DNA of 64,000 bases from a virus (IMGVR_UViG_2852055501_000007:23047-87046), one strand, 5' to 3'. Positions 14,020-40,051 are shown, numbered from the stretch's first letter. Notes: generated from the letters alone by a model not told the origin. Made by a program: numbers and translations.

Positions 14020-14262
14020 ATGAAAATGTTAACTTTGGATGAATGGGCAGAAGACCGGTACAGGAGCCGCCCACCTAAACTGGGAACATTACAGCGGTAC
14101 GCCCGATGCGGTCTGTTTTTCCCACCGGCACAGAAAGAAGGCGGTATTTGGCGCGTGAGAGAAGATGCCGAACTTGTCGGTAATTTAATCTCACCGGTGA
14201 TCAGCAAAAGTGACAATCCCAGGTTGCAAAGGATTTTAACTGATGGCTGCCAGACCCCGTAA
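14020..14262 (+). CDS. xis: Excisionase
   Basis: LTLDEWA..., PPAQKEG..WRVREDA; overlaps int start. Confidence 0.88.
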   Translation: MKMLTLDEWAEDRYRSRPPKLGTLQRYARCGLFFPPAQKEGGIWRVREDAELVGNLISPVISKSDNPRLQRILTDGCQTP

Positions 14263-15370
14263 AAATAATATCAATATCCCCAACCTGTACCCGTTTTTCA
14301 GCAGGAAAACCAGCAAGGTGTACTGGCGCTACAGACATCCCGTCACCGGGAAATTCCATTATCTCGGTGACAACGAGGAAGAGGCCAAAATAATCGCGGT
14401 TGAGGCTAATCTGCGACTGGCTGAACAGCGAAGCCGCCAGATAATGGCGATAAGTGATCGGATGGCGAAAATAAAAGGCAAAGAAATCACTGTTAATACC
14501 TGGCTGGATAGGTACCAGAAAATCCAATCGGAGCGTCTGGCAGACGGTGAAATAAAACAGAATACCTTTAAGCAAAAACAGAAACCTGTTGCACTGATGC
14601 GTCATGCGTTGTCACAAAAACCATTACCGGCAGTCGATGCCCGTGATATTGCCGATATTCTGGATCAGTATAAGGCCAGTGGTCAGCACCGGATGGCTCA
14701 GGTTGTCCGTTCAGTGTTAATCGATGTATTCAAAGAAGCGCAGCATGCCGGTGAAGTTCCGCCCGGATATAACCCAGCTCTCGCTACAAAGCAACCACGG
14801 CGAAAGGTCACCCGGCAACGACTTAGTCTGGAAGAATGGCAGAAAATTTATGATATCGCCTGCAAGGACCATAAATATCTCGGAAACGCCATGTTGTTGG
14901 CTGTAGTTACCGGACAGCGCCTCGGAGATATTTCAGAAATGAAGTTCCGTGATATATGGGATGACTATCTGCATGTCATCCAGCAAAAAACCGGAACGCG
15001 GCTTGCTATCCCTCTCTCCCTCCGGTGTCAGGCACTCAATATCAGCCTGCGGGATGTGATTGCCGGATGCCGTGATCTGTATGTCAGCAAATATTTAGTC
15101 CACTACACACGAAACACATCACAGTCACAGCCCGGCGGCCAGGTAACCGCAAATACCCTGACCACCAACTTTAAAAAAGCCAGGGATAAAACCAATATCG
15201 ATTGGGGAGAAGGTACGCCTGCAACATTTCATGAAATGCGGTCATTGTCGGAACGTTTATACCGACAACAAGGAATTAATACCAAAAACCTGTTGGGTCA
15301 TAAAAGCCAGCAACAAACCGATAAATATCATGATGATCGTGGCAAAGATTGGATAAGAGTGTTGATATAA
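14243..15370 (+). CDS. int: Tyrosine integrase (lambda/phage 21 type)
   Basis: MAARPR arm-binding N-terminus, TGQR.GDI, FHEMRSLS, LLGH, Y. Confidence 0.96.
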   Translation: MAARPRKNNINIPNLYPFFSRKTSKVYWRYRHPVTGKFHYLGDNEEEAKIIAVEANLRLAEQRSRQIMAISDRMAKIKGKEITVNTWLDRYQKIQSERLADGEIKQNTFKQKQKPVALMRHALSQKPLPAVDARDIADILDQYKASGQHRMAQVVRSVLIDVFKEAQHAGEVPPGYNPALATKQPRRKVTRQRLSLEEWQKIYDIACKDHKYLGNAMLLAVVTGQRLGDISEMKFRDIWDDYLHVIQQKTGTRLAIPLSLRCQALNISLRDVIAGCRDLYVSKYLVHYTRNTSQSQPGGQVTANTLTTNFKKARDKTNIDWGEGTPATFHEMRSLSERLYRQQGINTKNLLGHKSQQQTDKYHDDRGKDWIRVLI

Positions 15371-15420
15371 TATTTTATTTGCACATAGTTAAATTTGTAT
15401 ATCTGTCTTCTAGGCTACAT

Positions 15421-15444
15421 ATCCGGTTTGTGCCAGCAGCGGAA
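15421..15444 (+). repeat. 24-bp palindromic cargo-border repeat (copy 1)
   Basis: ATCCGGTTTGTGCCAGCAGCGGAA; matches consensus of 21044-21067. Confidence 0.6.
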
Positions 15445-16126
15445 GTTGTCAAGACCACGCTAGATAGGTTGAAATATTGCATATCCTAATGGATATGGAT
15501 TCTACACATAAAAATGCACTGGTTACTGTTTATGTTACTCATCACTTCCCAATCGAGGACAAGTCAGCCCTACCCAAGGGAGCAAACTAAACAAATTGCT
15601 GAATCAGCATGTCTATCCTAATATAATGTCGTCTACTCTCACTTTGCGTTGGCTTTTTTTGAGTAAAAAAATAATTTAAATATCGCCTAAAATGCTAACC
15701 AATTATCTGGAGAGTAATAAAGAAAATGTGGGTAATTCATTTCTTTCATCGAATTATAAAAAAATTCCACAATACGAGAGTTAGAAGTAAATAAAGAGGC
15801 AGTACAGTAACTAAGATCTCCGCATCAGATTTTAAAGATAAATTTCCATCCTATTGCAATAAAATGAAAACAGAGCAGTTATAAACTATGCTTGTTTTTG
15901 TATAAATCCAACATTAATACATACTGATACGATTTTAAGGGTCATGACATTTGTTACTTATGGCCTCTGTTCATAATAGGTTTCCCGCTCGCCACGCTTA
16001 GCCGGGAGGAACAATAGCAGACGTACGAAAATGGTGGCACATTAGATAAATAGCCTATCAACAATAACATTACTGATAGGCAGTTAGGAATTTAACTCAG
16101 TAATTAAAACTGATACTGAGGCTGTT

Positions 16127-18264
16127 TTAGTTTTTTATTTTTGCCATTTTTTTGTAATGTGCAGAATAACCTGTATGCTCGAACACTAATCTAAGTCCCT
16201 CTTTGAAATCATTATAGTTAAACTCCTTAAAGTCAAAAATATTCTGTCCTAATGAATGTGATTCTCTGTTTATGTAGCGAATAAAGGACTGAAATCGTGG
16301 TTTCTTTAACTCTGGTTTTGAGTGACGTTGCTTAAATCTGCTTTTTGTACAAAGTTGAAAAAGTATTCAATTATATTCCTCATGCAGTTAGCAATTAAGG
16401 CTGGAGGTTGTTTGTCATCATTGATTACTGACCAGTAAGACTGGTAGTCATTTGTATTTCATCATACTTCATTAAAATAATTGAACTGCCATTAGAGTTT
16501 TTAGAAAGCCTAAATAAATTTTGAGTTTCTTTTCTTCTTTCATGGTTTGCATCAGCAAGTTCATAGAAAAAATATAGACTGTGAGATAAAACAAATACCT
16601 GTTCTATTTCATCAGAGTTAAAGAAGTCATTTTTATCAGCTGACCAATATTATAAACAAAAATATGTGATAAACTTGATACAGGATCGTCAATTATTGCT
16701 ATTTTCCTTGTTTTACCCTCAGTGGCAATTATTTTACCTCTGAATAGCTCTCTAAAATATAAAAGGCTGATAATCATTTTTTCGCCTTCACTTAATGATG
16801 AGAATATTTTAGAACTAGATTCGTTGCGAACTATACGATAAAGAGTATCTTCATATTTTTCGATATGAAAATCAGTAATTCCGATATCATTTAGACCTTG
16901 ATTTATGTTGAATACTGCCTCATCTATATTCACAGTAGATCTCTGATATTCAATACGTTCTTTATCTTTGACCTTTATCATTTCTTTTTTTCATCTTTTC
17001 TGTATTTTTTGAATGATGATATTATTTGCAATATTTTTATATCGTTGAAATTTAAAATTGTTTGGTCATACTCATACCTTAAGATCTGCCAAAACGATAT
17101 CTTTATTTTTCTAATTCATCTTTTGCATTATCTATTTTAGAATTATGTGTGGCTATTTCAGCATTTACTAATTCTATTAATAAATTGAAGTTATCAACAG
17201 AGTTAGATGTATCAGCCAGAGTTACTGTATTACTGGATTTATTACTTTCTGCTTTATTAGGTCTAGATTTTTCTCTGTATCTTTACTTAATTGGTTATAA
17301 TAGTCACTTAATTTAATTATATGGTTGGCAGAAAATTTGCATTCTTATAATTATCCAGTGAAGGAATTCCGTCAATCAATGACTTATATTTAGTTTGAAT
17401 ATACTTTATTTTTTCTACACTATTTTATATGTCTCGTCGAAATAATTACGAATATGCTGAACCAAGTTTTCAGTAATAGTTTGAGATTGACAAAATGGAC
17501 ACTGGGAATCCCTGTTTGTTCTAAGTATTTTAGCCCTTCATTTACCCAATCTGAGTTCTGAAGCTTACTTATAAGATATGAACGGACTGTCTGTACTTCC
17601 CACAATGACATCTTGAAGTAATTTCACTTCATCAAATGATAATTCAATGGTGTCAATTTTCTCTAACATGTTGTATTTAATTGCTGTCTTGCCATCAACC
17701 GCACTTGCTTCTTCTTTAGGTCAGAGATTTTTTGATGGCTTAGGACTAGGCAAAGGAATGGAGCAAAGATGGTTAAATAGTGATTCTTACTTCCCATTTT
17801 TCCTGACAAACAAAATTCAAGGACCCTATCACCACCTGAATAGTTGGTTTTTATTTCCCATGTTTTATTTGAGCTTGTTTTTTGAATCAGAAATAATGGT
17901 ATTTTGTGCTGAAATTTCATTTTCAATTTCACGTTTTTCATCAGTCAATTTTATTATTTTTAATGTAAGGCTCTCAACCTTTTCTTTTGCTTCTTTATTT
18001 CTTTGGATAAACTAAATATTCCATTTAGAGAATCCTTTGCATAAAATTATCCTGAATGAATTTTTGATTATAGACAAGGATTTCATCATACTCACCTGAG
18101 TGAGAACAATGCTGATATTTTTCATTCTCTATATCATAGAAATAATTAGAGAGAGTACTTTTGCCTGTTCCATTTAAACCATAAATAATATTTACTTTTT
18201 ATCAGTATTTAATTCTGATTTGACTTATAACTTGCAACTTTATTAGCACTATATTGTTTATCAT
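16127..18264 (-). pseudogene. RloC-like SMC/ABC ATPase with zinc hook and HEPN-like C-terminus, multiply frameshifted
   Basis: IIYGLNGTGKSTL (Walker A), QCPFCQ, LSEGEK, IIDDPVSSL, VLSHS, ANCMRNIIEYFF, RYINRESHS across frames. Confidence 0.8.
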
Positions 18265-18679
18265 GATTTACCCTTTAGATATTCGAGACTAAAGACCCAA
18301 GGTTGATAAAGTATCTCTTATGAGAGTCCTAGACAAGTAAGCGAGTGATATTTTGCGACATAGGCACACAAGGCATTACCTGCTACTGCGGCGCCATATT
18401 CTATTCATTGTAGAAGCAGGATATCCGTTAATTGAAAGTGTAGTTTTACAGTTTTCTATTTTCCATATAGCCAGCCGTCATAACTTTATTTCCATTTTGC
18501 TAGTCTGTTTAATTAAAGAATCTATGTGTATAGAATAAGTGTAAACATAATTTATGTACCGAAAGTTTGACAGCTCGGTTGTATTTTTATCCGGGTAGAC
18601 CCAGTTTCATCAAAGTGCAGTCAGGCGCAGAGCCTTTATGCCACAAGTTTCTAATTACCCTCAAAATAGGCATTAAAAA

Positions 18680-18724
18680 TGTGCCAGCGAAGTTGTAATG
18701 TCCATTACTCGCTCAAAGCGGCCC
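18680..18724. repeat. Palindromic cargo-border repeats (one partial, one inverted copy)
   Basis: TGTGCCAGCGAAGTTG then GTCCATTACTCGCTCAAAGCGGCC. Confidence 0.6.
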
Positions 18725-18832
18725 TCTCCTTACCACACATCTAAACCTCAAATTACCCACAATCTGCACAAATTTCATACCGTTTTGCTAAATCATTTTG
18801 CAAACTTTTTGATAACCGTTTCAGACTGAACA

Positions 18833-18862
18833 ATAAAAAACGGAACTAATAAGTTCCCGTTA
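18833..18862 (-). terminator. Terminator downstream of icd 3' end
   Basis: AACGGGAACT..AGTTCCGTT hairpin + T-run. Confidence 0.65.
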
Positions 18863-18883
18863 ATTATTTCACTGCAAACTTAA

Positions 18884-19048
18884 TTACATGTGTTTGATGA
18901 TTGCGTCACCAAACTCTGAGCATTTCAGGAGCTTAGCGCCTTCCATCAGACGTTCGAAATCGTAAGTGACGGTCTTGGCAGCGATTGCCCCTTCCATTCC
19001 TTTAACGATTAAGTCAGCGGCCTCAAACCAGCCCATGTGGCGCAGCAG
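18884..19048 (-). pseudogene. icd: Duplicated 3' end of isocitrate dehydrogenase (icdC-like); att junction between the prophages
   Basis: Translates [54 protein letters not shown]; no 5' part. Confidence 0.93.
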
Positions 19049-19246
19049 TAGATACTAAGAATCAATATAACTACATAATTTTATTATTAAAACCATTAAA
19101 AACAATGCTCTTCAGGTGTTTGAATGCTTTGCCTAACCTATTGTTTTAACACTATTCCACTGATAGTTTTGGGAATGTATTTTCAATTATTAGTTCGTGA
19201 AAAAACTTATTCCATCTCAACGCGCTTCATCACCTAAATGGACACA

Positions 19247-20508
19247 TTAACTTTTCACCACCGGCAGCTGACTAAAATTTGTCGTGTATGCCGGTGACAA
19301 CATTTCGCGCTTCATCTTGTACCCGCTGTCGCTGCCTTTACCGGCGAACCACACCCGGCCCATACCGCTGTTATTGATCGTGTCGATAGTCTTCATCAGC
19401 TCGTCGCTGTTTTTGAATGGCTGCCGCGTGGCGAACATATCGAGCTGGGTGACTGCTGAATCCGTGAAATCTGATAGAATAATGCCCGCCTTATAATACC
19501 GGTACCCATCACACCAGATGTTATCCAGTGATCTCATGGCGGCATTAATGATGTCCCGCGTGTCGCAGCTGGGATACTCGAGTGAAATGTTTGTACTGTT
19601 CGCATAGTCCGGCCCGTTAGCGTGTCTGCTGGTCTGCACAAACACCCCGATCATCCGGCAACGCTGCTTTTCTTCTCGGAGTTTTTCAGCTGACCGTTCC
19701 GCATATTCACATACGGCCTTTCTCATGGTGACAATGTCTGTCACTTTGTACCGAACGACCTAGAACAGAGGATCTGCTGTTTCACCTTTCTGACTTCTTC
19801 CAGCTCGATGCAGGGTTCCCCGTTCAGTTCCCGCAGCGTGCGCTCAGTAATAACACCGAATGTTTTCCTGATAGTCGCCGGTGAAGCGTTTGCTAAATCT
19901 AATGCGGTGCAGATCCCCATAGTATTCAGTCTGGCAGATATTCGCCGGCCGATACCCCATACCTCACTGACCGGTATCAAAGCCAGTAATTTACGCTGGC
20001 GCAGAAGATCAGAAAGATCGACCACTCCACCGGTTTTTTTCCATGTTTTGCCGCGTGGTTGGCAAGTTTTGCGAGTGTCTTTGTCGGTGCAATACCAACA
20101 CCGACCGGAAGGTGTGTTTTCTGCAGAATGGCAGCCTGTATCTCACGGCCGTAATCTTCCAGGCTGAATGTCCTGGTCATGCCAGTAAAATCAGAAAGGC
20201 TTCATCGATAGAATAGATTTCTGTGGCGGGTGCGAAGGATGAGAGCAATGTCATCACACGGCTGCTCATATCGCCGTACAGCGCATAATTTGAACTGAAT
20301 ACGGTCACATTATTTTTGCGGCAAAATCGCAGCACTCATAATACAGCGCCCCCATTTTGATACCGAGGGTTTTCGCCTCTACTGACCTGGCGATCACGCA
20401 GCCATCATTATTGCTCAGGACGATGACCGGCTTACCTGTCAGGTCCGGCCGGAATACTCTTTCACAGCTTGCGTAAAAGCTGTTTACATCCACCAGCGCG
20501 AACATCAC
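19247..20508 (-). pseudogene. umuC: DNA polymerase V UmuC, four frameshifts (possibly sequencing errors)
   Basis: [45 protein letters not shown] in successive frames. Confidence 0.9.
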
Positions 20509-20921
20509 TGCGCTCGGTGAATGATGTAGGTGACCACACCGAAAATCTGTAAATCCTGCTCGCTGCTGATTGCAATAGGCTGATAATCCGGATTCATCGG
20601 GATCAGCATAGGTGCCGGTAACAGTTGTAATTTTTTGACAGTAAACTCACCATCAAAACTGGCAATTACAATATCACCTTCAACTGCAGTTACCGCGCTG
20701 TCCACGATAACCACATCACCGTCAAAGATATTCGCATCTATCATCGAACTGCCCTCAACCCTGAGCAGGTAGGTGCTTTCAGGATGCCGGATCAGCTCAC
20801 TGTTCAGGTTTATGCGGTCCTCGATATAGTCCGCCGCCGGTGACGGAAACCCGGCCGGGACATGCTCCAGGAACAGAGGCAATGTCAGAATTGCATCATC
20901 GTTAATCTTGACAAGTTTCAT
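20505..20921 (-). CDS. umuD: DNA polymerase V subunit UmuD
   Basis: [19 protein letters not shown]. Confidence 0.95.
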
Positions 20922-20937
20922 ACTCAAAGCCGACTAA

Positions 20938-20953
20938 CTGTACATACATACAG
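20938..20953. promoter_or_regulatory. LexA (SOS) box
   Basis: CTG-TACATACATA-CAG upstream of umuD. Confidence 0.9.
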
Positions 20954-21043
20954 TTAATGATAAAGAAGTTTGGCTGTCTCATCAATCTGATTTTTACTAA
21001 TCTTATGCGTCACATGCATTACTCATTGAAATCAAATCCGACA

Positions 21044-21067
21044 GTCCGCTATGAGCGAGGAGCGGAC
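21044..21067 (+). repeat. 24-bp palindromic cargo-border repeat (best copy)
   Basis: GTCCGCT-ATGAGCGAGG-AGCGGAC, perfect 7-bp arms. Confidence 0.75.
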
Positions 21068-21423
21068 ATTCACGGTCGCTGCCACTTGTATTACCCAGCC
21101 CCCACCTGATGTTCTCGCTGCTGATAGAGGATTACGAACAATTCTAAGCACCAATAAATGGGGCTGACTAAGCTGTTTGACCGTGAATTACTTCCGATCC
21201 TCTTCAAGTACGATAGATTTTAGTAGAAACGGATTTGATGAATAATACCGCAGTGAGTACTGCGAGATTATGAGGCTGCTAGTTCTGCCCGTCATTTAAA
21301 ACAGGAGGGAGGAAAGGAGACTCATGGGATGTATATTCAAACAAGCTGCTCCTTGCGTCATTCCAAGCCTGAATGATTTCCTCCGAACCATGCATCTTCC
21401 TTAATGTGTTTATAATGTAGTCA

Positions 21424-21487
21424 TATACCCTTATTCATTCAAACCGCAGTTTGAGCTCAGCCTGCAGTTTGAATTACGTTGGGTATA
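21424..21487. repeat. Short ERIC-like inverted-repeat element
   Basis: TATACCC...TTCAAAC.GCAG / CTGCAGTTTGAA...GGGTATA termini. Confidence 0.65.
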
Positions 21488-21657
21488 TATACCGGATTAA
21501 AATATCAATTAAGTAAGGTAACTATTGTATTTTGAATAAATAACTTTTTTAAGATTTTTAGTATTGGAAGACATATTGAAAATAACGCAACATGCAGAAA
21601 TTGAAAGGGAAACGCTAAGTTTTATCAGTGCCGATTAAATAATCGGCATCAGGGAAA

Positions 21658-22623
21658 TTAACGCCAGCGTTCTGTCGCCCAGGCGACCTGCTGTTGTGCA
21701 TCGTGGAAAGTCCAGGCCACGAAGCGACTGATTTTTTGCCCCTGCGCCATTTCAATGGTACGGACTTCGGCCGCACCCACCAGCTTCAACGCGTGATAAA
21801 TCGAAGGTAAGGTCGTATTTTTAGAAATCAACGAGGTGAACCACAGGCAGTTTTGCGCCAGGCTAACGCTCTCCTCTACCATTTTACGCACAAAGGCTTC
21901 TTCACCGCCTTCACACCATAGCTCTTTATTTTTGCCGCCAAAGTTCTGTACCGGCGTGTCGGCTACCTCGCCTTTACCCAGCTTGTGCAGTTTGCGACGG
22001 GTGCTGGCTTGCGCTTCCTGTTCAGAGCTGTGGAACGGTGGATTACACAGTGTGGCATCAAATTTCTCTGCCACGCCGATGATGCCGTTCAAAATACATT
22101 CGGGGTGTTTTTGTAAACGCAGGCGCACGCCGTTTCTCAGTGTCGTATTCATCTCCACGATCATTTTGGCCGAATTGAGCGATATCGGATTAATCTCCGA
22201 ACCGGTAAAACGCCAGCCATATTCACGCAGGCCAATAATCGGATAAATACAGTTGGCACCAACACCCACATCAAGGATCGCCACGCCTTTACCGCGAGGG
22301 AACTCACCGCCGTTGCTGGTCGCCAGCAGGTCGGCCAGATGGTGTAAATAGTCGGCACGCCCGGGGATCGGCGGGCACAGATAATCGGCGGGAATGTCCC
22401 AGTGTTCAATGCCATAAAAATGTTGCAGTAATGCACAGTTGAGCATTTTAACCGCCGCAGGATCGGCAAAATCTATCGAGATGTCGCCCCAAGCGTTCGG
22501 CTTGATGAACGGCTCCAGTGCAGGGCAACTAGCGATCAGCGCCGGGAAATCATAGCGTGAACGATGACGGTTACGCGGGTGCAAGCCACTTTTCTGCTGC
22601 AGGAAGGTTTTCTTTTTTTCCAC
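21658..22623 (-). CDS. rlmF: 23S rRNA m6A1618 methyltransferase
   Basis: LHPRNRH, LCPPIPGRADY, LDVGVGANCIYP, CNPPF, ELWCEGGE, MAQGQKISR; GTG start 22623. Confidence 0.95.
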   Translation of the reverse strand: MEKKKTFLQQKSGLHPRNRHRSRYDFPALIASCPALEPFIKPNAWGDISIDFADPAAVKMLNCALLQHFYGIEHWDIPADYLCPPIPGRADYLHHLADLLATSNGGEFPRGKGVAILDVGVGANCIYPIIGLREYGWRFTGSEINPISLNSAKMIVEMNTTLRNGVRLRLQKHPECILNGIIGVAEKFDATLCNPPFHSSEQEAQASTRRKLHKLGKGEVADTPVQNFGGKNKELWCEGGEEAFVRKMVEESVSLAQNCLWFTSLISKNTTLPSIYHALKLVGAAEVRTIEMAQGQKISRFVAWTFHDAQQQVAWATERWR

Positions 22624-22667
22624 CGAGAAAGGTTCTCTTAAAGGTATTTCTGACGCGTACGATACCA

Positions 22668-22880
22668 TATACCCTATAGCTTTCAAGTTGCAGCTAACAG
22701 CTCGGGATGAAACCGTATTAAGCCTGCATTCAGAGCTTATGCCGGAATGTCCTGCTCTTTATACATAACGCAATTCAAGATGCAGGAAGGCGGCAAGGGA
22801 AGATAAACAGGGAACATACATCAGTATGTGACCCGGCTGGCTGAGTGAGGCCAACGAACCTGCCCACATGTAAAATTCAA
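22668..22880. repeat. ERIC-like sequences (one end fragment and one longer degenerate copy)
   Basis: TATACCCTATAGCTTTCAAGTTGCAG at 22668; TATAC...TTCAAGATGCAGGAAGGCGGCAAG...CATAC.TCAGTATGTGAC...GCCAAC at 22760-22870. Confidence 0.65.
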
Positions 22881-22882
22881 AT

Positions 22883-22906
22883 GGCTGTTTTGAGCGAGGA
22901 GCGAAC
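22883..22906 (+). repeat. 24-bp palindromic cargo-border repeat
   Basis: GGCTGTTTTGAGCGAGGAGCGAAC, same orientation as 21044 copy. Confidence 0.65.
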
Positions 22907-23223
22907 CTCTCCCTCTGTTTCGAGGTTCGCGGTCTATGAATCAACGGGGAACAGGTCAGCACGTTTATTGACGCCAGAATAATCCGGACAGTGAAACTGT
23001 ACTCCAAGAGGTGAAAATGGAATCAATAAGAACTTGTGCAGCGTATAATATAAGCCTGATGATGAATTTAATGACGAATACAGTGGAAATGACAAGAGCA
23101 GAGTAACACTGCGGGCCAACAATTAAACATAAGTACCGTTAGTTACCGGGGATAACTAACGGCGGTGTAGTCATAGCATTAAGCAATATATTGCAAAAAA
23201 CATTAGGATTCTACTATTGTTCT

Positions 23224-24771
23224 TTAAGCTTTAATGCGATTTATTTCATTTTCAACAGTTGTTTCAATTTTTTCAATTAGCTGTTTAAATATTTCAATAT
23301 TTTTATCTTGAGTGGCTTTTGATGCAAAAACGCGAATAAAGAATTTAACATAGTGATATGGTTGAAGTGCTTCATTACATTCACGTAATTCCTTTATTTC
23401 ATGCCGGCCATCAATTTCTTTTTTAATTATTTTAGCTTGGCTAACATCAATGTCCTTGAAGTTGTCTTCAATCTGAAAATCAAGCACCCATCCATTTCCT
23501 GCTAAATTCTCTTTAAGAATGTTATTAATCTTCTCAGAAATTTCACTTTTGTATCTTTTGAATGTATTATCTGAAAGTTTAACATTAGAAAATGTGTGTT
23601 TTTTTTCATATATTTTTTTCCACACTTTTCTATTAACAATATCATTAAGTATTTCTTTAGAATCTCCATTTAACTTATTTTCAAGCGTGTGCTCTAAAAA
23701 TTTTTTGTCTGGATTATTTATATAGAAATCTCTCATTAAATCAATGACATTACCCTCAGAATCTAAAGGGATAACATTAACAGAGCCTTGTCCAGAACAT
23801 GCTTTATTAAGCATAGCAGATAGCGCGCGATTGGTTTTATGGAAATAGACTTGACTATAAAGACCACTTCTTGCATTAGCAAATTCTAGTATTGAATCCA
23901 TACCACTTTCTTTATATGCCAAGTAAATGCTATTTTCTACTTTGACAGGGATAAATGACATTAGCAATCGCCCATAATCATATATCCCATACTTAACGCC
24001 CGAGAAGTAGCTATCTCTCAGTAAGTAGTCCATTCTATCTGCATCTATAGGTGAAGATGATATGATTGAGCCCAATAAAGGATATATATCTGGACCTTCC
24101 ATTTCATTTTTAAATTCATATTTTTTTTCAACAATTTTTATAATGCTATCTGCGTTAATCATTTCTATATTTTCTTTATAAGTATCGTCACCATCTAATT
24201 CTATTTCAGCTTTACTCTTCAACTCATCAATTATTTCTTTAATAAAAATGCATGATACTTGTTCGTGGCTTAATCGTCCTTCTTTACTATCAGATAATGA
24301 TATGATTTTATCGTATTTCTGAGTGCCTTCAGCCTTGCATTTTTCTTCGAATTTTTTTATTTCTACGGCAAAACTATCGAATTGATGGGCTAGAGGACCA
24401 TGCCCAACATCGTGTAACAATGCTGCAATACGTAGTTCCTGAATAAGACTTGTTGGTATTTTTTTAATATCCAGGTAGAGGTCAACATCCACATCTTTAC
24501 GATTATAAATCAACGCATTCAAATCTATATTTTTCAATATTTCATACGATAAATGCATCACACCAACTGAGTGCTCAAAACGAGAGTGCATTGCAGAAGG
24601 AAATACTTTATATAGAAACGTATTCTGCCTAATATCTCTTAGCCTTTGGAATAAAGGATGGTCAATTATCTTTTTTTCAAGCTTAGTTATCCGAATGACT
24701 CCATGTATGGGATCTAGAAATTTCCCCAAAAGCAAGTCTTCAAAGTTCTTAGGTTTGTTTTTATTTGTCAC
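23224..24771 (-). CDS. HD-domain phosphohydrolase (SAMHD1/YdhJ-like dNTPase)
   Basis: DPIHG, FQRLR.IRQ, HSRFEHS.G, LLHDVGHGP..H, DADRMDYLLRD, VYFHK. Confidence 0.9.
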   Translation of the reverse strand: MTNKNKPKNFEDLLLGKFLDPIHGVIRITKLEKKIIDHPLFQRLRDIRQNTFLYKVFPSAMHSRFEHSVGVMHLSYEILKNIDLNALIYNRKDVDVDLYLDIKKIPTSLIQELRIAALLHDVGHGPLAHQFDSFAVEIKKFEEKCKAEGTQKYDKIISLSDSKEGRLSHEQVSCIFIKEIIDELKSKAEIELDGDDTYKENIEMINADSIIKIVEKKYEFKNEMEGPDIYPLLGSIISSSPIDADRMDYLLRDSYFSGVKYGIYDYGRLLMSFIPVKVENSIYLAYKESGMDSILEFANARSGLYSQVYFHKTNRALSAMLNKACSGQGSVNVIPLDSEGNVIDLMRDFYINNPDKKFLEHTLENKLNGDSKEILNDIVNRKVWKKIYEKKHTFSNVKLSDNTFKRYKSEISEKINNILKENLAGNGWVLDFQIEDNFKDIDVSQAKIIKKEIDGRHEIKELRECNEALQPYHYVKFFIRVFASKATQDKNIEIFKQLIEKIETTVENEINRIKA

Positions 24772-25349
24772 GATGCTTTCCTTTTTGTATAGTTATAACG
24801 CTTAATTTAAATAGTATTAATGATTATAGTTTCGATATGTTATTTAATAATCAACGTATTATGAAAGAGCATATCAACATGGATTTGTAAATTCAATTGA
24901 CATGTGTAATTGAGTTATAATCCGGATTGATGTGATAAAGCACCACTGATAAATGCTTGAGGTTAAACCTCGGCCAAGATCCGTGATGTTCAAACCAGTA
25001 TGCAATCATGGTTGTACAATAGTGTTTGCTGATAGCGCAATGTGTAAGAGTGGTGGTTAAAAAAATCGCTTGATATTGAAGATGAAGCAAGGTTTTTCGA
25101 TTATGGCGACATAAGTCAATCAAAGACTGGTCGATATTTTCGAACGTAGACCATTGGTATTCACACTTGAATCAGCATTTAAATGGATGGTTTCGGAAAC
25201 TAACAGAGCACAAACCAGCAAATTAACCCATTCCATCGCGATACCGGCAGACAGCTAACACATAGTATGCATTCTAAATTGATATGATCTCAAACAGTAT
25301 TCTGTGTTCCTGACCAACTCCCCGTCTAACATAACATGATGCAAGCAAT

Positions 25350-25387
25350 GTCCGTTCTTGGCACGGAGCAGACTGCTATGAGCGACC
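25350..25387. repeat. Palindromic cargo-border repeats (inverted copy plus partial copy)
   Basis: GTCCGTTCTTGGCACGGAGCAGAC followed by TGCTATGAGCGA. Confidence 0.6.
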
Positions 25388-25432
25388 AAGAATGAAAAGC
25401 TGCTATGAATAGAAATCCACCCCATTCAGATA

Positions 25433-26205
25433 TCAAAAGCCGGGAGAATATCTCACAGGAGACATAGCTCCTTTCTTTCTCAGATCATCCGGAATTTTTT
25501 TACCCAAGTAAAGCTGCAACATATCAGGGGGGCTACTCTTCCTCGGAACCCGAAGCGAGATTTTTGGGTAGATTCAAACTCATCATCAGCATCCCATGAA
25601 AGCATCTCAGGAAAGTTCTCACGAGTAGATTTAAGCCACTCATCAGCCACATACACCCCTTTCACAATTCCTCTAACTGTAGCCAGTATAACTTCAGCCT
25701 TGCGGGCACGCTCAACACTGACACGCCAGCTAAAACGCACAGCATCATAGAGGTCTATATCCCTTGAACTTCTGTTCACGGATATCATGAGGACTTTATG
25801 TTTGAACACGATTGTTTCAGGTTGATATGTTGCAATTAACTCTTTGATGTGTGCAGCACCATATTCGTTGCTGCCAGCACCGTTCACGATGTTAGTTAAA
25901 CCGGGGTAGGCATCTATGAGTGCAGCTTCAACTTCGTAAGCAGTCTTTTCATCAGCCATACCGTGTCGGTGGATTACATGGATGACCTCAAGACCAGCCA
26001 GTCTGATCTCTCGAAGTTGCTTGAGTTTGTTACTAAGTAATTCATCATCATCAGCCGCGGCGACCTCACCACGCATATGAGCAAATACACGATTCTCTTT
26101 CCCCTTCCCCACATAGAAGGTACTTCCATCCCTTGGGTCAATTAGTCGGTATACATACCAGCCAAGATGTTCCATTACTCCCGGTGGAAACCCCTTAATA
26201 TCCAT
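25433..26205 (-). CDS. LEM-3-like GIY-YIG domain protein (C-terminus frameshifted in homopolymers)
   Basis: [17 protein letters not shown]...RVF.H, EAALID, LTN; likely true end ...[14 protein letters not shown] at 25433. Confidence 0.8.
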
Positions 26206-26452
26206 GTCATAACTCCAATCATTTAATTCATGAGGCACAGGCAAAACATAGTAATGCTGATTAACAACTAATAGTACTCATTAATCTCCCCTATGATTGA
26301 TAGGACGAAGAAAAAGTAAAGTCTGCATCTCATGGTACAGGGCTATCTGTCAAATTAGATTTGGACTTATGCCCCAGCTATATCCGGTTAAGTTTTGGCT
26401 GATACATATAAGGATTGCCGCGTCGAACATCCACCAGCGCGGCTTTCTTTAT

Positions 26453-27007
26453 TTACGTCGTGGCCGGAAAATACCGGTAAATCGTCGATACCCCCACACC
26501 ATAAATAATTGCCAGCTGCTGCCGGGAATATCCTTTATCCAACAGGCGACTGATTTGCTCCCGGTCATTCTGTGTCAGCGCCGCCGGTCGTCCGCCGACT
26601 CTGCCCTGTGCTCTCGCTGCAGCCAATCCTGCCAGCGTCCGTTCCACTATCAGCTCGCGTTCCATTTCAGCCAGTGCTGACATGACGTGAAAGAAAAAGC
26701 GCCCCATAGCGGTGCTGGTGTCGATACTGTCCGTCAGTGACCGGAAATGTGCGCCACGTTCGTGCAGATCAGATATCAGCGCTATCAGGTTTTTGACACT
26801 GCGCCCGAGCCTGTCCAGTTTCCACACTGCGAGTGTATCGCCCGGCTGAATAACCTTTAATGCCCGTTTCAGTCCCGGCCTGACGGCGGTTTTACCGCTC
26901 ATTTTGTCCTCAAAAATCTGATCACAATTTATGCTGATGAGCGCGTTTCGCTGTAAATCGCTGTTTTGGTCAGTTGTTGATACACGGATATAGCCGATGA
27001 CCGCCAT
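26453..27007 (-). CDS. Serine DNA invertase (Pin/Gin/Hin family)
   Basis: GYIRVST, RPGL, WKLDRLGRS, ERTLAGL.AAR, C-terminal HTH. Confidence 0.95.
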   Translation of the reverse strand: MAVIGYIRVSTTDQNSDLQRNALISINCDQIFEDKMSGKTAVRPGLKRALKVIQPGDTLAVWKLDRLGRSVKNLIALISDLHERGAHFRSLTDSIDTSTAMGRFFFHVMSALAEMERELIVERTLAGLAAARAQGRVGGRPAALTQNDREQISRLLDKGYSRQQLAIIYGVGVSTIYRYFPATT

Positions 27008-27069
27008 TGTTTTCCCTCATGTTTACTGTAATGACGGGATTATTACGGATTTATCCGGTTATGGCTGCA

Positions 27070-27095
27070 TTCCCAGAAACCTTGGTTTGAGAGAA
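27070..27095 (+). other. Invertase crossover site (hix/gix-like), left
   Basis: TTCCCAGAAACCTTGGTTTGAGAGAA; inverted match to 29295-29320. Confidence 0.88.
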
Positions 27096-27671
27096 CTTTA
27101 CCTTGCACTGACTGGCGGGACGCTGAAAGGGCCGTTAAATATCGAATATGTTGGAGGTCGGGGATTAACTACAGGAGCAACAGCCGGAACATCAATTTAT
27201 CATGAACTGTATCTGCTTGGAAAACTGGTTGCCTGGTGGGGAATTATAAACAGTAACGAATTAGTGCTTGAAAACAGAGTCGCTGGTAAAAAATTAATTA
27301 TTGGCCCCGATGGTTTCAAAGTTGACGGTAAAGACATTGCGACTACTGAGCAACTTTTCGGTGTTGGTCAGACCTACAGAAACCTGACGACCAGCCGTCA
27401 AAATAAAGTCTGGTACACCAACACCGACAGCAAGCCCCGGATTGTTCATGTCGAAACGAACAGAACAGGTACTCAGTATCCTTTCAGTATTGATATTCAG
27501 GTAATTCATAACGGAGTACAACATCGTGCTGATTATCGCTGGACAACTGCTGATGAGGTTATTTGTTTAACTGCTGTGATTCCGCCCGGCGCAAGATATA
27601 GCGTCAACGGAGGATGGGGACAGCCGACAGAATGGACTGTTATTAATTTCTGGCTGGAGTACTCGCTATGA
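27082..27671 (+). CDS. Silent alternative tail-fibre C-terminal cassette
   Basis: Open frame reads NLGL across the crossover site, as does the expressed fibre (KNLGLGE); WYTNT..KP, IPPGARYSV tip motifs. Confidence 0.8.
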
Positions 27672-28021
27672 AATATTACAAAACGAAAAATAATGAAGTT
27701 TATGCACTTGAAGATAACGACTCTGCAAAAGAGTGGATAAAAGAAAAAGTGACTGAAATCACCAAAGAGGAAGCTGATAACATCACAAATCCGCGACCAA
27801 CGAAAGAACAACTGATCGCAAAAGCTGAATACGATAAGCAGGCGCTGATTACAGAGGTTCAGGCTGAAACTCAGTTACTGCAAACAAAACTGGCACTTGG
27901 CCGTATCAGTGATAATGAAAAGGCGCGGTTAAACGCCTGGCTGGATTATCTGGACGAACTGGAGGCAGTGGACGTATCCACCGCCCCTGATATTATCTGG
28001 CCGGTGAAGCCGGAGGTATAG
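27668..28021 (+). CDS. Tail fibre assembly protein (alternative)
   Basis: L.AWLDY...L.AVD.STAPDI.WP.KP. Confidence 0.88.
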   Translation: MKYYKTKNNEVYALEDNDSAKEWIKEKVTEITKEEADNITNPRPTKEQLIAKAEYDKQALITEVQAETQLLQTKLALGRISDNEKARLNAWLDYLDELEAVDVSTAPDIIWPVKPEV

Positions 28022-28622
28022 GCCATTCAGTACCGGCACCGGCGAATGTGTCGGTATCAGTGACTTTCACACTGTAAATTTCCCATTCTGTCAGTTTTGC
28101 CCGGTCTGTTTCAGTCGCCATGTTGAGGCGTATTTTACGCTCCAGCATGGCAATTTCCTGTTCAGCTTCTGCCAACAGCGACTGTTTCTGACTTTCGGCA
28201 ACAGCGACCTCATGCGCGTGCTGTTCTGCTTTATCTGTTACCCACTTTTTCCCGTCCCACTTATCAAAAGGCGTTTGCGGCTCAAGCAATGCCAGATTAT
28301 CCGGCAGCGCACCGACGTTGTTTATCAGGACTTTTTCTTTTGTGGTTTTGTCATAAGCGGTTTTACCGCGATGGTCTTCCACATGCAGCCAGCGTTTACC
28401 GTCCTCACTGCGGACAATGGCAAATCCCGGCGCGGGTAATTCCGGTTTATCCGGATAGGCATCAGCTTTCAGACTGAACCCTAACGGTACCTCATCCATG
28501 CTTTTGCCGGTATATTCCCGTGTCAGCGGGTGGCAGCAATACACTTCAGCCCATCCCGGCACGATAGCCAGCCCGTTTTCGTCAAATACCGCGTACTGAA
28601 TTTCAGTGTTGTAATCTGCCAT
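27993..28622 (-). CDS. Tail fibre assembly protein (lambda Tfa-like)
   Basis: EDHRGKTAY, P.TPFDKWDG.KWVTD, WP.PP. Confidence 0.9.
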   Translation of the reverse strand: MADYNTEIQYAVFDENGLAIVPGWAEVYCCHPLTREYTGKSMDEVPLGFSLKADAYPDKPELPAPGFAIVRSEDGKRWLHVEDHRGKTAYDKTTKEKVLINNVGALPDNLALLEPQTPFDKWDGKKWVTDKAEQHAHEVAVAESQKQSLLAEAEQEIAMLERKIRLNMATETDRAKLTEWEIYSVKVTDTDTFAGAGTEWPIPPASPAR

Positions 28623-39887: not shown

Positions 39888-40051
39888 GCTTTTTGCTCCT
39901 TCACTTTCTGAGGATTACCCGGCACGACATCCCCCTGATTCAGACGGGTGCGCCAGAAAACATTATCAGGGACGTCCTGCCCGGATTCAGGCAAAAGCTC
40001 CCCTTTGACCGGACAGCGGACGCTGCGGCCTTTTACAGGTTTTACAAACAT
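39884..40051 (-). CDS. DUF2635-like small tail-region protein
   Basis: Hand translation MFVKPVKGRSVRCP...FWRTRLNQGDVV. Confidence 0.75.
   Translation of the reverse strand: MFVKPVKGRSVRCPVKGELLPESGQDVPDNVFWRTRLNQGDVVPGNPQKVKEQKA

Follow-up and report, generated by a model that had tools for sequence, protein, structure and literature searches.

Sites at the borders of accessory genes

The subject of this analysis is a family of 24-bp sites in a viral contig of 87 kb, the last 64 kb of which (IMGVR_UViG_2852055501_000007:23047-87046; 64,000 nucleotides, referred to below as the window) carry genes for an ATPase, an RlmF-like RNA methyltransferase, an HD-domain protein and a GIY-YIG protein as cargo in a prophage backbone. 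Compared with related contigs, the sites mark the exact swap points of accessory-gene cassettes. Seven copies had been listed in a first-pass annotation of the window, and all seven are present in the sequence. Five are full sites, scoring 27-48 bits in a scan of the whole 87 kb with a 27-column profile that derives from 127 independent copies at other loci; the best score in 100 Markov shuffles of the contig was 19.7 bits, and the shuffles contained a mean of 0.22 matches at ≥12 bits. The scan found no further site above threshold in the 87-kb contig. (A match of a simple pattern search at 39998 scored 10.7 bits in the profile scan and was treated as chance.) The copy at 21044-21067 is the sole perfect 7-10-7 palindrome among the listed copies; those at 15421, 18700 (minus strand), 22883 and 25350 (minus strand) are degenerate, yet score 27.6-31.9 bits. 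The partial copies at 18680 and 25374 were recognised by eye and score below 8 bits with the full profile. Every site in the contig is intergenic and lies between cargo genes, as had been claimed for the accessory region. The core of a site is either TGAGCGA (A-type) or TGTGCCA (T-type).

The first-pass annotation had also asked whether cargo breakpoints fall at the motif, and they do. Contigs from sequencing runs X10 and X12 track the window to 21066, the penultimate base of the perfect 21044 site, continue with 3463 other letters and rejoin it at 26402. A contig from run X5 departs at 21058 into a flank that is found behind many sites elsewhere, and in that run 1986 other letters stand in place of the ATPase unit (15379-18733). 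Two other viral contigs (L219 and L220) also contain the RlmF-like cassette (21068-22908) between the same bounding sites; past its 22883 site, three different neighbours are found. Judged from the joints and not from the letters between them, some related prophages connect the integrase end with the icd region and lack the 15.4-18.8 kb unit as a whole.

The features of the region are collected in Table 1. The lambda-type integrase at its left border is not the enzyme that is proposed below for the motif. The E. coli homologue of the cargo-1 ATPase matches PADLOC PDC-S06 (E 7e-255) and Pfam AAA_13 (E 1.7e-107); the cargo-3 HD protein is 75% identical to an E. coli lambdoid-prophage protein and has no PADLOC match. 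The ATPase and umuC genes are frame-broken in this record. Contigs of related strains (runs X10 and X12) differ from the window over 15328-18911 by 0 substitutions and 41 one-base gaps, and over 19024-20435 by few substitutions and many one-base insertions relative to the window; because the differences are mostly one-base gaps, the frame breaks are probably errors of this assembly rather than marks of pseudogenes.

Table 1. Sites, cargo and backbone features of the cassette region (window coordinates)
Position	Strand	Feature	Evidence
14243-15370	+	Lambda-type prophage integrase; backbone, left border of cassette 1	Pfam Arm-DNA-bind_1 (E 2.6e-38), Phage_integrase (E 4.2e-18)
15421-15447	+	T-type site, core TGTGCCA, degenerate arms, then GTT	30.4 bits
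16130-18264	-	Cargo 1: AAA_13 / PDC-S06-type ATPase (RloC-like gene of the first-pass annotation)	tblastn pieces, three frames
18680-18695	+	Partial T-type core TGTGCCAGC..GAAGTTGT, remnant	By eye; <8 bits
18700-18723	-	A-type site (TGAGCGA core); right arm degenerate; end of cassette 1	27.6 bits
18776-19055	.	icd 3' fragment (phage attachment region); backbone between the two site arrays	Matches icd-annotated stretches of Escherichia phages
19250-20921	-	umuC and umuD; backbone	tblastn against Morganella phage IME1369_01: umuD 93% identical, umuC in two frames
21044-21070	+	A-type site, perfect palindrome GTCCGCT-ATGAGCGAGG-AGCGGAC, then ATT	48.2 bits
21658-22686	-	Cargo 2: RlmF-like RNA methyltransferase	Pfam Methyltransf_10 (E 2.3e-127)
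22883-22909	+	A-type site, degenerate left arm GGCTGTT	29.4 bits; same left half in L219 and L220
23224-24771	-	Cargo 3: HD-domain protein	Pfam HD (E 1.8e-6)
25350-25373	-	T-type site	31.9 bits
25371-25394	+	Partial A-type site, reduced to left half and core; back to back with the T-type site	
25480-26244	-	Cargo 4: GIY-YIG protein, PD-T4-3 defence type	PADLOC PD-T4-3 (E 6e-121); Pfam LEM-3_GIY-YIG
26322-26362	-	Possible decayed T-type site and outer flank TGTCAAATTAGATTT	Weak, by eye; right end of the cargo swap is 26402
26453-27007	-	Serine resolvase/invertase (Pin-like); backbone, right border	Pfam Resolvase (E 2.4e-46)

Two observations concern the backbone. The icd fragment is of the kind carried by icd-integrating phages, and near-identical 36-nucleotide stretches recur about 46 kb apart (8704 and 55855; 10379 and 56547), a pairing that suggests two related prophages in tandem around it. 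The Pin-like serine invertase adjoins a tail-fibre assembly gene (26453-28622); this is the usual tail-fibre switching module and is unrelated to the motif.

Two site classes and an orientation grammar

In the family at large a site consists of 7-bp arms, GTCYGCT and AGCGGAC, separated by a 10-bp centre and usually followed by RTT. Over 128 distinct contexts, conservation is limited to these 24 bp and the 3' RTT and drops sharply outside, leaving a weakly conserved AAATCTGA on the 5' side and a weakly conserved outer flank, AAATCTGACA, that lengthens the repeat. Only two types of loop occur on such stems, NTGAGCGARR and NTGTGCCARR. The two core variants that had been noticed in the window are mutually exclusive classes: 154 sites in viral contigs comprise 112 A, 42 T and none mixed, and 248 sites with good arms include 157 A, 81 T and seven mixed. 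(In a Rahnella contig, reciprocal mixed cores, TGTGCGA and TGAGCCA, stand at L153:5384 and L153:9938 around a cassette beside the small recombinase gene described below, a possible footprint of T-by-A inversion; the only comparable cargo is that of L051.)

Neighbouring sites also obey a grammar of orientation. All but nine of 240 adjacent pairs (231) take one of four forms: +A/-T, which is equivalent to +T ... -A around cargo (115 pairs); -A/+T, back-to-back junctions with 12-18 nucleotides between the sites (70 pairs); and the direct repeats +T/+T (24 pairs) and +A/+A (22 pairs). T and A are thus oppositely oriented almost without exception. The sites of the window follow the same grammar in two arrays, with the icd-umuDC backbone between them.

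The first-pass annotation had recommended a scan of Enterobacterales genomes, and the family proves to be widespread in their phages, plasmids and islands. At least 119 stretches of viral contigs contain the A-type core in exact form together with its 3' arm, and the arms form 6-7 Watson-Crick pairs in 85 of 121 viral matches. A 32-nucleotide query matches 1411 plasmid records (chiefly of Klebsiella, Enterobacter, Pantoea and Escherichia), 65 phage records, lambda and P2-like phages among them, and complete genomes of E. coli (at least 1861 of 5426). Of two complete E. coli chromosomes, one holds four sites and the other six (one each with a reversed-pattern control), clustered in prophages and tRNA-linked islands. 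Among the genes that sites enclose in these islands are an iron-uptake operon and a BCCT transporter, so that the cargo is accessory genes in general and not defence alone. In phage P2, a +T site at 15335, after gene G, and a degenerate -A site at 17432, before the F operon, bracket fun(Z); at the same locus an E. coli P2-like prophage carries the ATPase of the window between +T and -A. The TO region of P2 (tin-old) has no site. Phage lambda has one A-type site, at 27322-27345 (L136:6323-6346), in the b region between ea59 and attP, where no function is annotated.

Exchange inside the site

The flanks of the sites are extensively reshuffled: a single left flank, found 22 times, is combined with 13 different right flanks, and a single right flank, found 10 times, with eight left flanks. 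The site halves go with their flanks. Where two sites have only the left flank in common, their left halves are identical in 59% of pairs (baseline 8%); where only the right flank is common to both, the right halves agree in 89% (baseline 48%). Comparison of half-sites and flanks places the exchange point between site positions 8 and 16; since the halves segregate with their own flanks, the joint lies inside the invariant core.

A small tyrosine recombinase linked to the sites

No dedicated recombinase had been visible in the window. A candidate emerges at other loci, where a small tyrosine recombinase gene is framed by sites and lies inside site clusters; the 87-kb contig as a whole has no copy of it. 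Two genes annotated "site-specific integrase", each of 200 amino acids and mutually 87.5% identical, are found, one in an island of E. coli and the other in a stretch of Pantoea plasmid that holds 11 sites in 12 kb. The protein consists of the Pfam Phage_integrase catalytic domain only and matched no equivalog model; its catalytic pattern, assigned by eye, is R51, K79, H148-x-x-R151, H174 and Y183.

In Enterobacterales the gene has an A-type site 39 nucleotides upstream, with a stem in between that sequesters the ribosome-binding site; downstream it is followed by a terminator-like stem and then, at about 20 nucleotides, by a T-type half site. Because A-type and T-type sites frame it in this way, the gene fills the place of the short spacer in -A/+T junctions. 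The resulting 711-bp module is the only homology shared by otherwise different contexts; it resembles an insertion sequence, with the -A/+T junctions resembling its empty form, and no transposase is linked to it. Twelve Enterobacterales recombinase loci contain 73 sites in 233 kb, to be set against 10 sites in the 9.6 Mb of the two E. coli chromosomes, which were counted at a different threshold. The gene or its remnants are present in all three of the non-phage site clusters examined. At least 547 of 600 candidate stretches, drawn from species-representative genomes, contain relatives, at 86-97% identity in Enterobacterales and about 61-65% in Pseudomonas and Betaproteobacteria; 406 plasmid records contain them too. 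Related sites, CGGCCA-RR-AGCGGMC, flank some distant homologues, beside which a half-site signal exceeds the 99th background percentile in 13 of 66 cases downstream and 8 of 66 upstream.

Several individual loci deserve mention. The conserved stem that precedes the gene, CTCAAATCTCC...GGAGATTTGAG, pairs with its ribosome-binding site (at about 9962-10000 in L139-L153; also in L134 and L137), and distant homologues retain an upstream stem with other letters, which suggests translational control of the recombinase. Locus L137 (Pantoea plasmid NZ_CP144369.1, 298934-310964) packs one-gene cassettes (GNAT, NUDIX, SDR, OsmC and others) closely together and includes the small recombinase twice, on a plasmid with 16 places matching the site query. 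Recombinase fragments of 76-80% identity in the site cluster of a tRNA-Ser island (L135; E. coli NZ_AP027694.1, 1997029-1997251) indicate a decayed platform.

The proposed reaction and its alternatives

These facts suffice for the construction of a provisional scheme, which we favour and think probable: the motifs would be the two-class recombination sites of an integron-like, non-integron cassette system, of which the phage copies are orphans or relicts. That the motif represents recombination sites or scars of an integron-like mechanism had been proposed at the outset, and it is consistent with breakpoints at sites, reshuffled flanks, exchange inside the site and a linked recombinase. In this scheme the motifs act as double-stranded recombination sites of two non-interchangeable classes, T and A; cassettes of one or a few genes would be held between T and inverted A, or between direct repeats of one class. 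Within the site, T would recombine with T and A with A, and the outcome would be the insertion, excision or swapping of cassettes among unrelated phages, plasmids and islands. The likely enzyme is the catalytic-domain-only recombinase of 200 amino acids, its own gene lying between an A-type and a T-type site; we infer that it acts on the sites. Since the contig does not encode the recombinase, the sites of the window would be an orphan array in partial decay, which either depends on an enzyme supplied in trans or has ceased to be active.

A number of observations count against this scheme. The 10-bp centre exceeds the 6-8-bp overlap that is usual for tyrosine recombinases, and the enzyme lacks a separate DNA-binding domain. 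Its gene is absent from the 87-kb contig and is found in only 928 of the 5426 E. coli genomes, although at least 1861 have sites; it occurs in three phage records, none of them enterobacterial, and among 121 viral loci in two only, as fragments. Most of the distant homologues have no site that is recognisable with the enterobacterial profile. Only one of the five window sites still folds as a hairpin, the other four being degenerate. The grammar and flank counts come from loci that are not fully dereplicated, and the sequencing runs consist of contigs only, with no recombination product, circle or inversion among them. Finally, recombination through short homology would equally give exchange inside a 24-bp site.

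This last point is the core of the main rival, that exchange needs no dedicated enzyme: a boundary sequence of 24-27 bp would be used by Red, RecT-type or RecA recombination, with the integrase as a passenger. Swapping of modules through short homologies has been proposed for the promoter-stem-loop cassettes of T4 and for the boundary sequences of lambdoid phages. The notion accounts for breakpoints at the sites, the exchange mapping inside the sole shared sequence; it sits easily with the many site-bearing phages and genomes, the majority, that have no small integrase, and site-carrying lambdoid prophages do encode Bet/Exo. What it leaves unexplained is the existence of two exclusive core classes, the strict T/A orientation grammar, the sharp 24-bp conservation over 128 contexts, and an integrase gene that always lies, at fixed spacing, between outward-facing A and T sites; moreover, 24 bp is at or under the usual minimum for efficient homologous exchange. 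Short-homology exchange is judged unlikely on this balance.

Considerably less probable is the proposition that a transposase encoded elsewhere moves non-autonomous units (transposons or miniature inverted-repeat transposable elements), of which T and A would be the imperfect terminal inverted repeats. The inversion of T and A around cargo, the extension of the repeat into the outer flank and the related prophages that are without the whole 15.4-18.8 kb unit are all in its favour; same-class direct repeats and back-to-back junctions also occur, however, and the segregation of site halves with their flanks fits crossover in the sites better than a cut-and-paste process that moves whole ends. 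A linked transposase is lacking: an ISNCY gene beside one site has no second site at its other end.

The least probable of the alternatives makes the motif a structural RNA or DNA hairpin with a regulatory role (a terminator, a processing site or an insulator of moron expression) and recombination a side effect. The perfect 21044 copy does fold (-8.2 kcal/mol, z -2.3), T-G far outnumbers C-A at stem position 4 (42 to 6), and 134 of 154 sites have no overlapping open reading frame of ≥90 amino acids. Against it, the possibility of a simple terminator, raised in the first-pass annotation, was checked with a consensus scan of 15000-26500, in which none of 11 terminator-like sites overlaps a motif; no T run follows the motif, whose conserved 3' flank is RTT only. 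An Rfam scan of 14500-26500 returned only a chance snoRNA match (E 9.6). Sites point either way with respect to the genes beside them, four of the five copies in the window fail to fold, and the arms are conserved in sequence and not by compensatory change, covariation of the stem being insignificant (eight T-A pairs seen, about six expected from independent change). A terminator or RNA role is not supported.

What a cassette system of this kind would mean

Returning to the two-class recombination sites, a broader formulation, offered tentatively and with rather less confidence than the scheme itself, is that Enterobacterales possess a second cassette system, independent of integrons and present in diverged form in other Proteobacteria, in which the 200-amino-acid tyrosine recombinase and two heterospecific 24-bp sites move accessory and anti-phage genes among P2-like, lambdoid and e14-like phages, plasmids and islands. 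If true, this would explain how defence genes pass so rapidly between unrelated mobile elements, for which a mechanism has been missing. With a conserved two-class site at exact cargo borders, including those of P2 fun(Z), and a linked recombinase, the mechanism of cargo exchange becomes testable; there would also be a rule, based on sequence, for finding the limits of cargo in prophages and plasmids, and perhaps a natural tool for cassette exchange. No account of these sites was found in the searchable literature on the motif strings, P2 hotspots, cassettes and tyrosine recombinases; older P2 papers and supplements lay outside that search, and an earlier description is possible. The passages covered in PMC13586616, PMC9122126, PMC6379469, PMC3448106, PMC6823313 and PMC3091744 do not mention them.

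Comparison with known systems

The resemblance to integrons and to clusters of attC sites lacking integron integrases is one of layout: a tyrosine recombinase, arrays of mostly single-gene cassettes with palindromic bounding sites, a less symmetrical site beside the recombinase gene, and many orphan arrays without the enzyme. Arrays lie beside a small recombinase gene that has variant sites of its own, an analogy that does not extend beyond the layout. The consensus attC site is of variable length, with R''/L''-L'/R' boxes (GTTRRRY); the sites described here are fixed at 24 bp, conserved in sequence, with arms GTCYGCT/AGCGGAC and none of those boxes. The 200-amino-acid recombinase reaches 15.9 bits with the integron-integrase model TIGR02249, whose cut-off is 265, and no such integrase gene is present in the contig. 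Unlike integrons, moreover, the system has two site classes in fixed inverted orientation, with genes either way round, and its arrays lie inside phage, plasmid and island hotspots. By these measures the site system is not an integron.

The pdif (dif) modules of Acinetobacter are accessory modules between short inverted sites, served by the host XerC/XerD; a site of this kind has an XerC and an XerD binding arm on either side of a 6-bp centre. Discrete accessory modules, short inverted sites and, for the most part, the lack of an adjoining recombinase gene are common to both; a dedicated small recombinase framed by sites, and a distribution mainly in Enterobacterales phages and also in plasmids, are peculiar to the present system. 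To our knowledge, the site sequence does not resemble dif. The promoter-stem-loop cassettes of T4 and the lambdoid boundary sequences are likewise short conserved intergenic sequences where phage modules shuffle; these are thought to work by homologous recombination and to have a primarily regulatory role, and they differ from the present sites, which have two exclusive cores, a strict orientation grammar and a linked recombinase.

Among tyrosine recombinases, the FimB/FimE invertases are of the same 200-amino-acid size class, and the present enzyme weakly matches models of the tyrosine-type invertases (PRK09871, 25.5 bits against 222; PRK09870, 18.2 against 221), far below these cut-offs. Unlike the sites of FimB/FimE and the Rci shufflon, those described here bound swappable cargo in many replicons and not one invertible switch; the probable core of the Rci sfx site, GTGCCAA, resembles the T core. 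The 7-10-7 layout, exchange at positions 8-16, exclusive cores and the orientation grammar are, as far as sequence can tell, those of tyrosine recombinase core sites, in which a pair of inverted binding arms encloses an asymmetric centre, the centre is where exchange occurs, and like sites recombine with each other. Engineered recombinase-mediated cassette exchange with heterospecific lox or FRT sites offers a final comparison: the present arrangement is natural and its reaction is proposed from sequence, but in both cases two site classes that do not cross-react flank a cassette, allowing it to be swapped without being lost.

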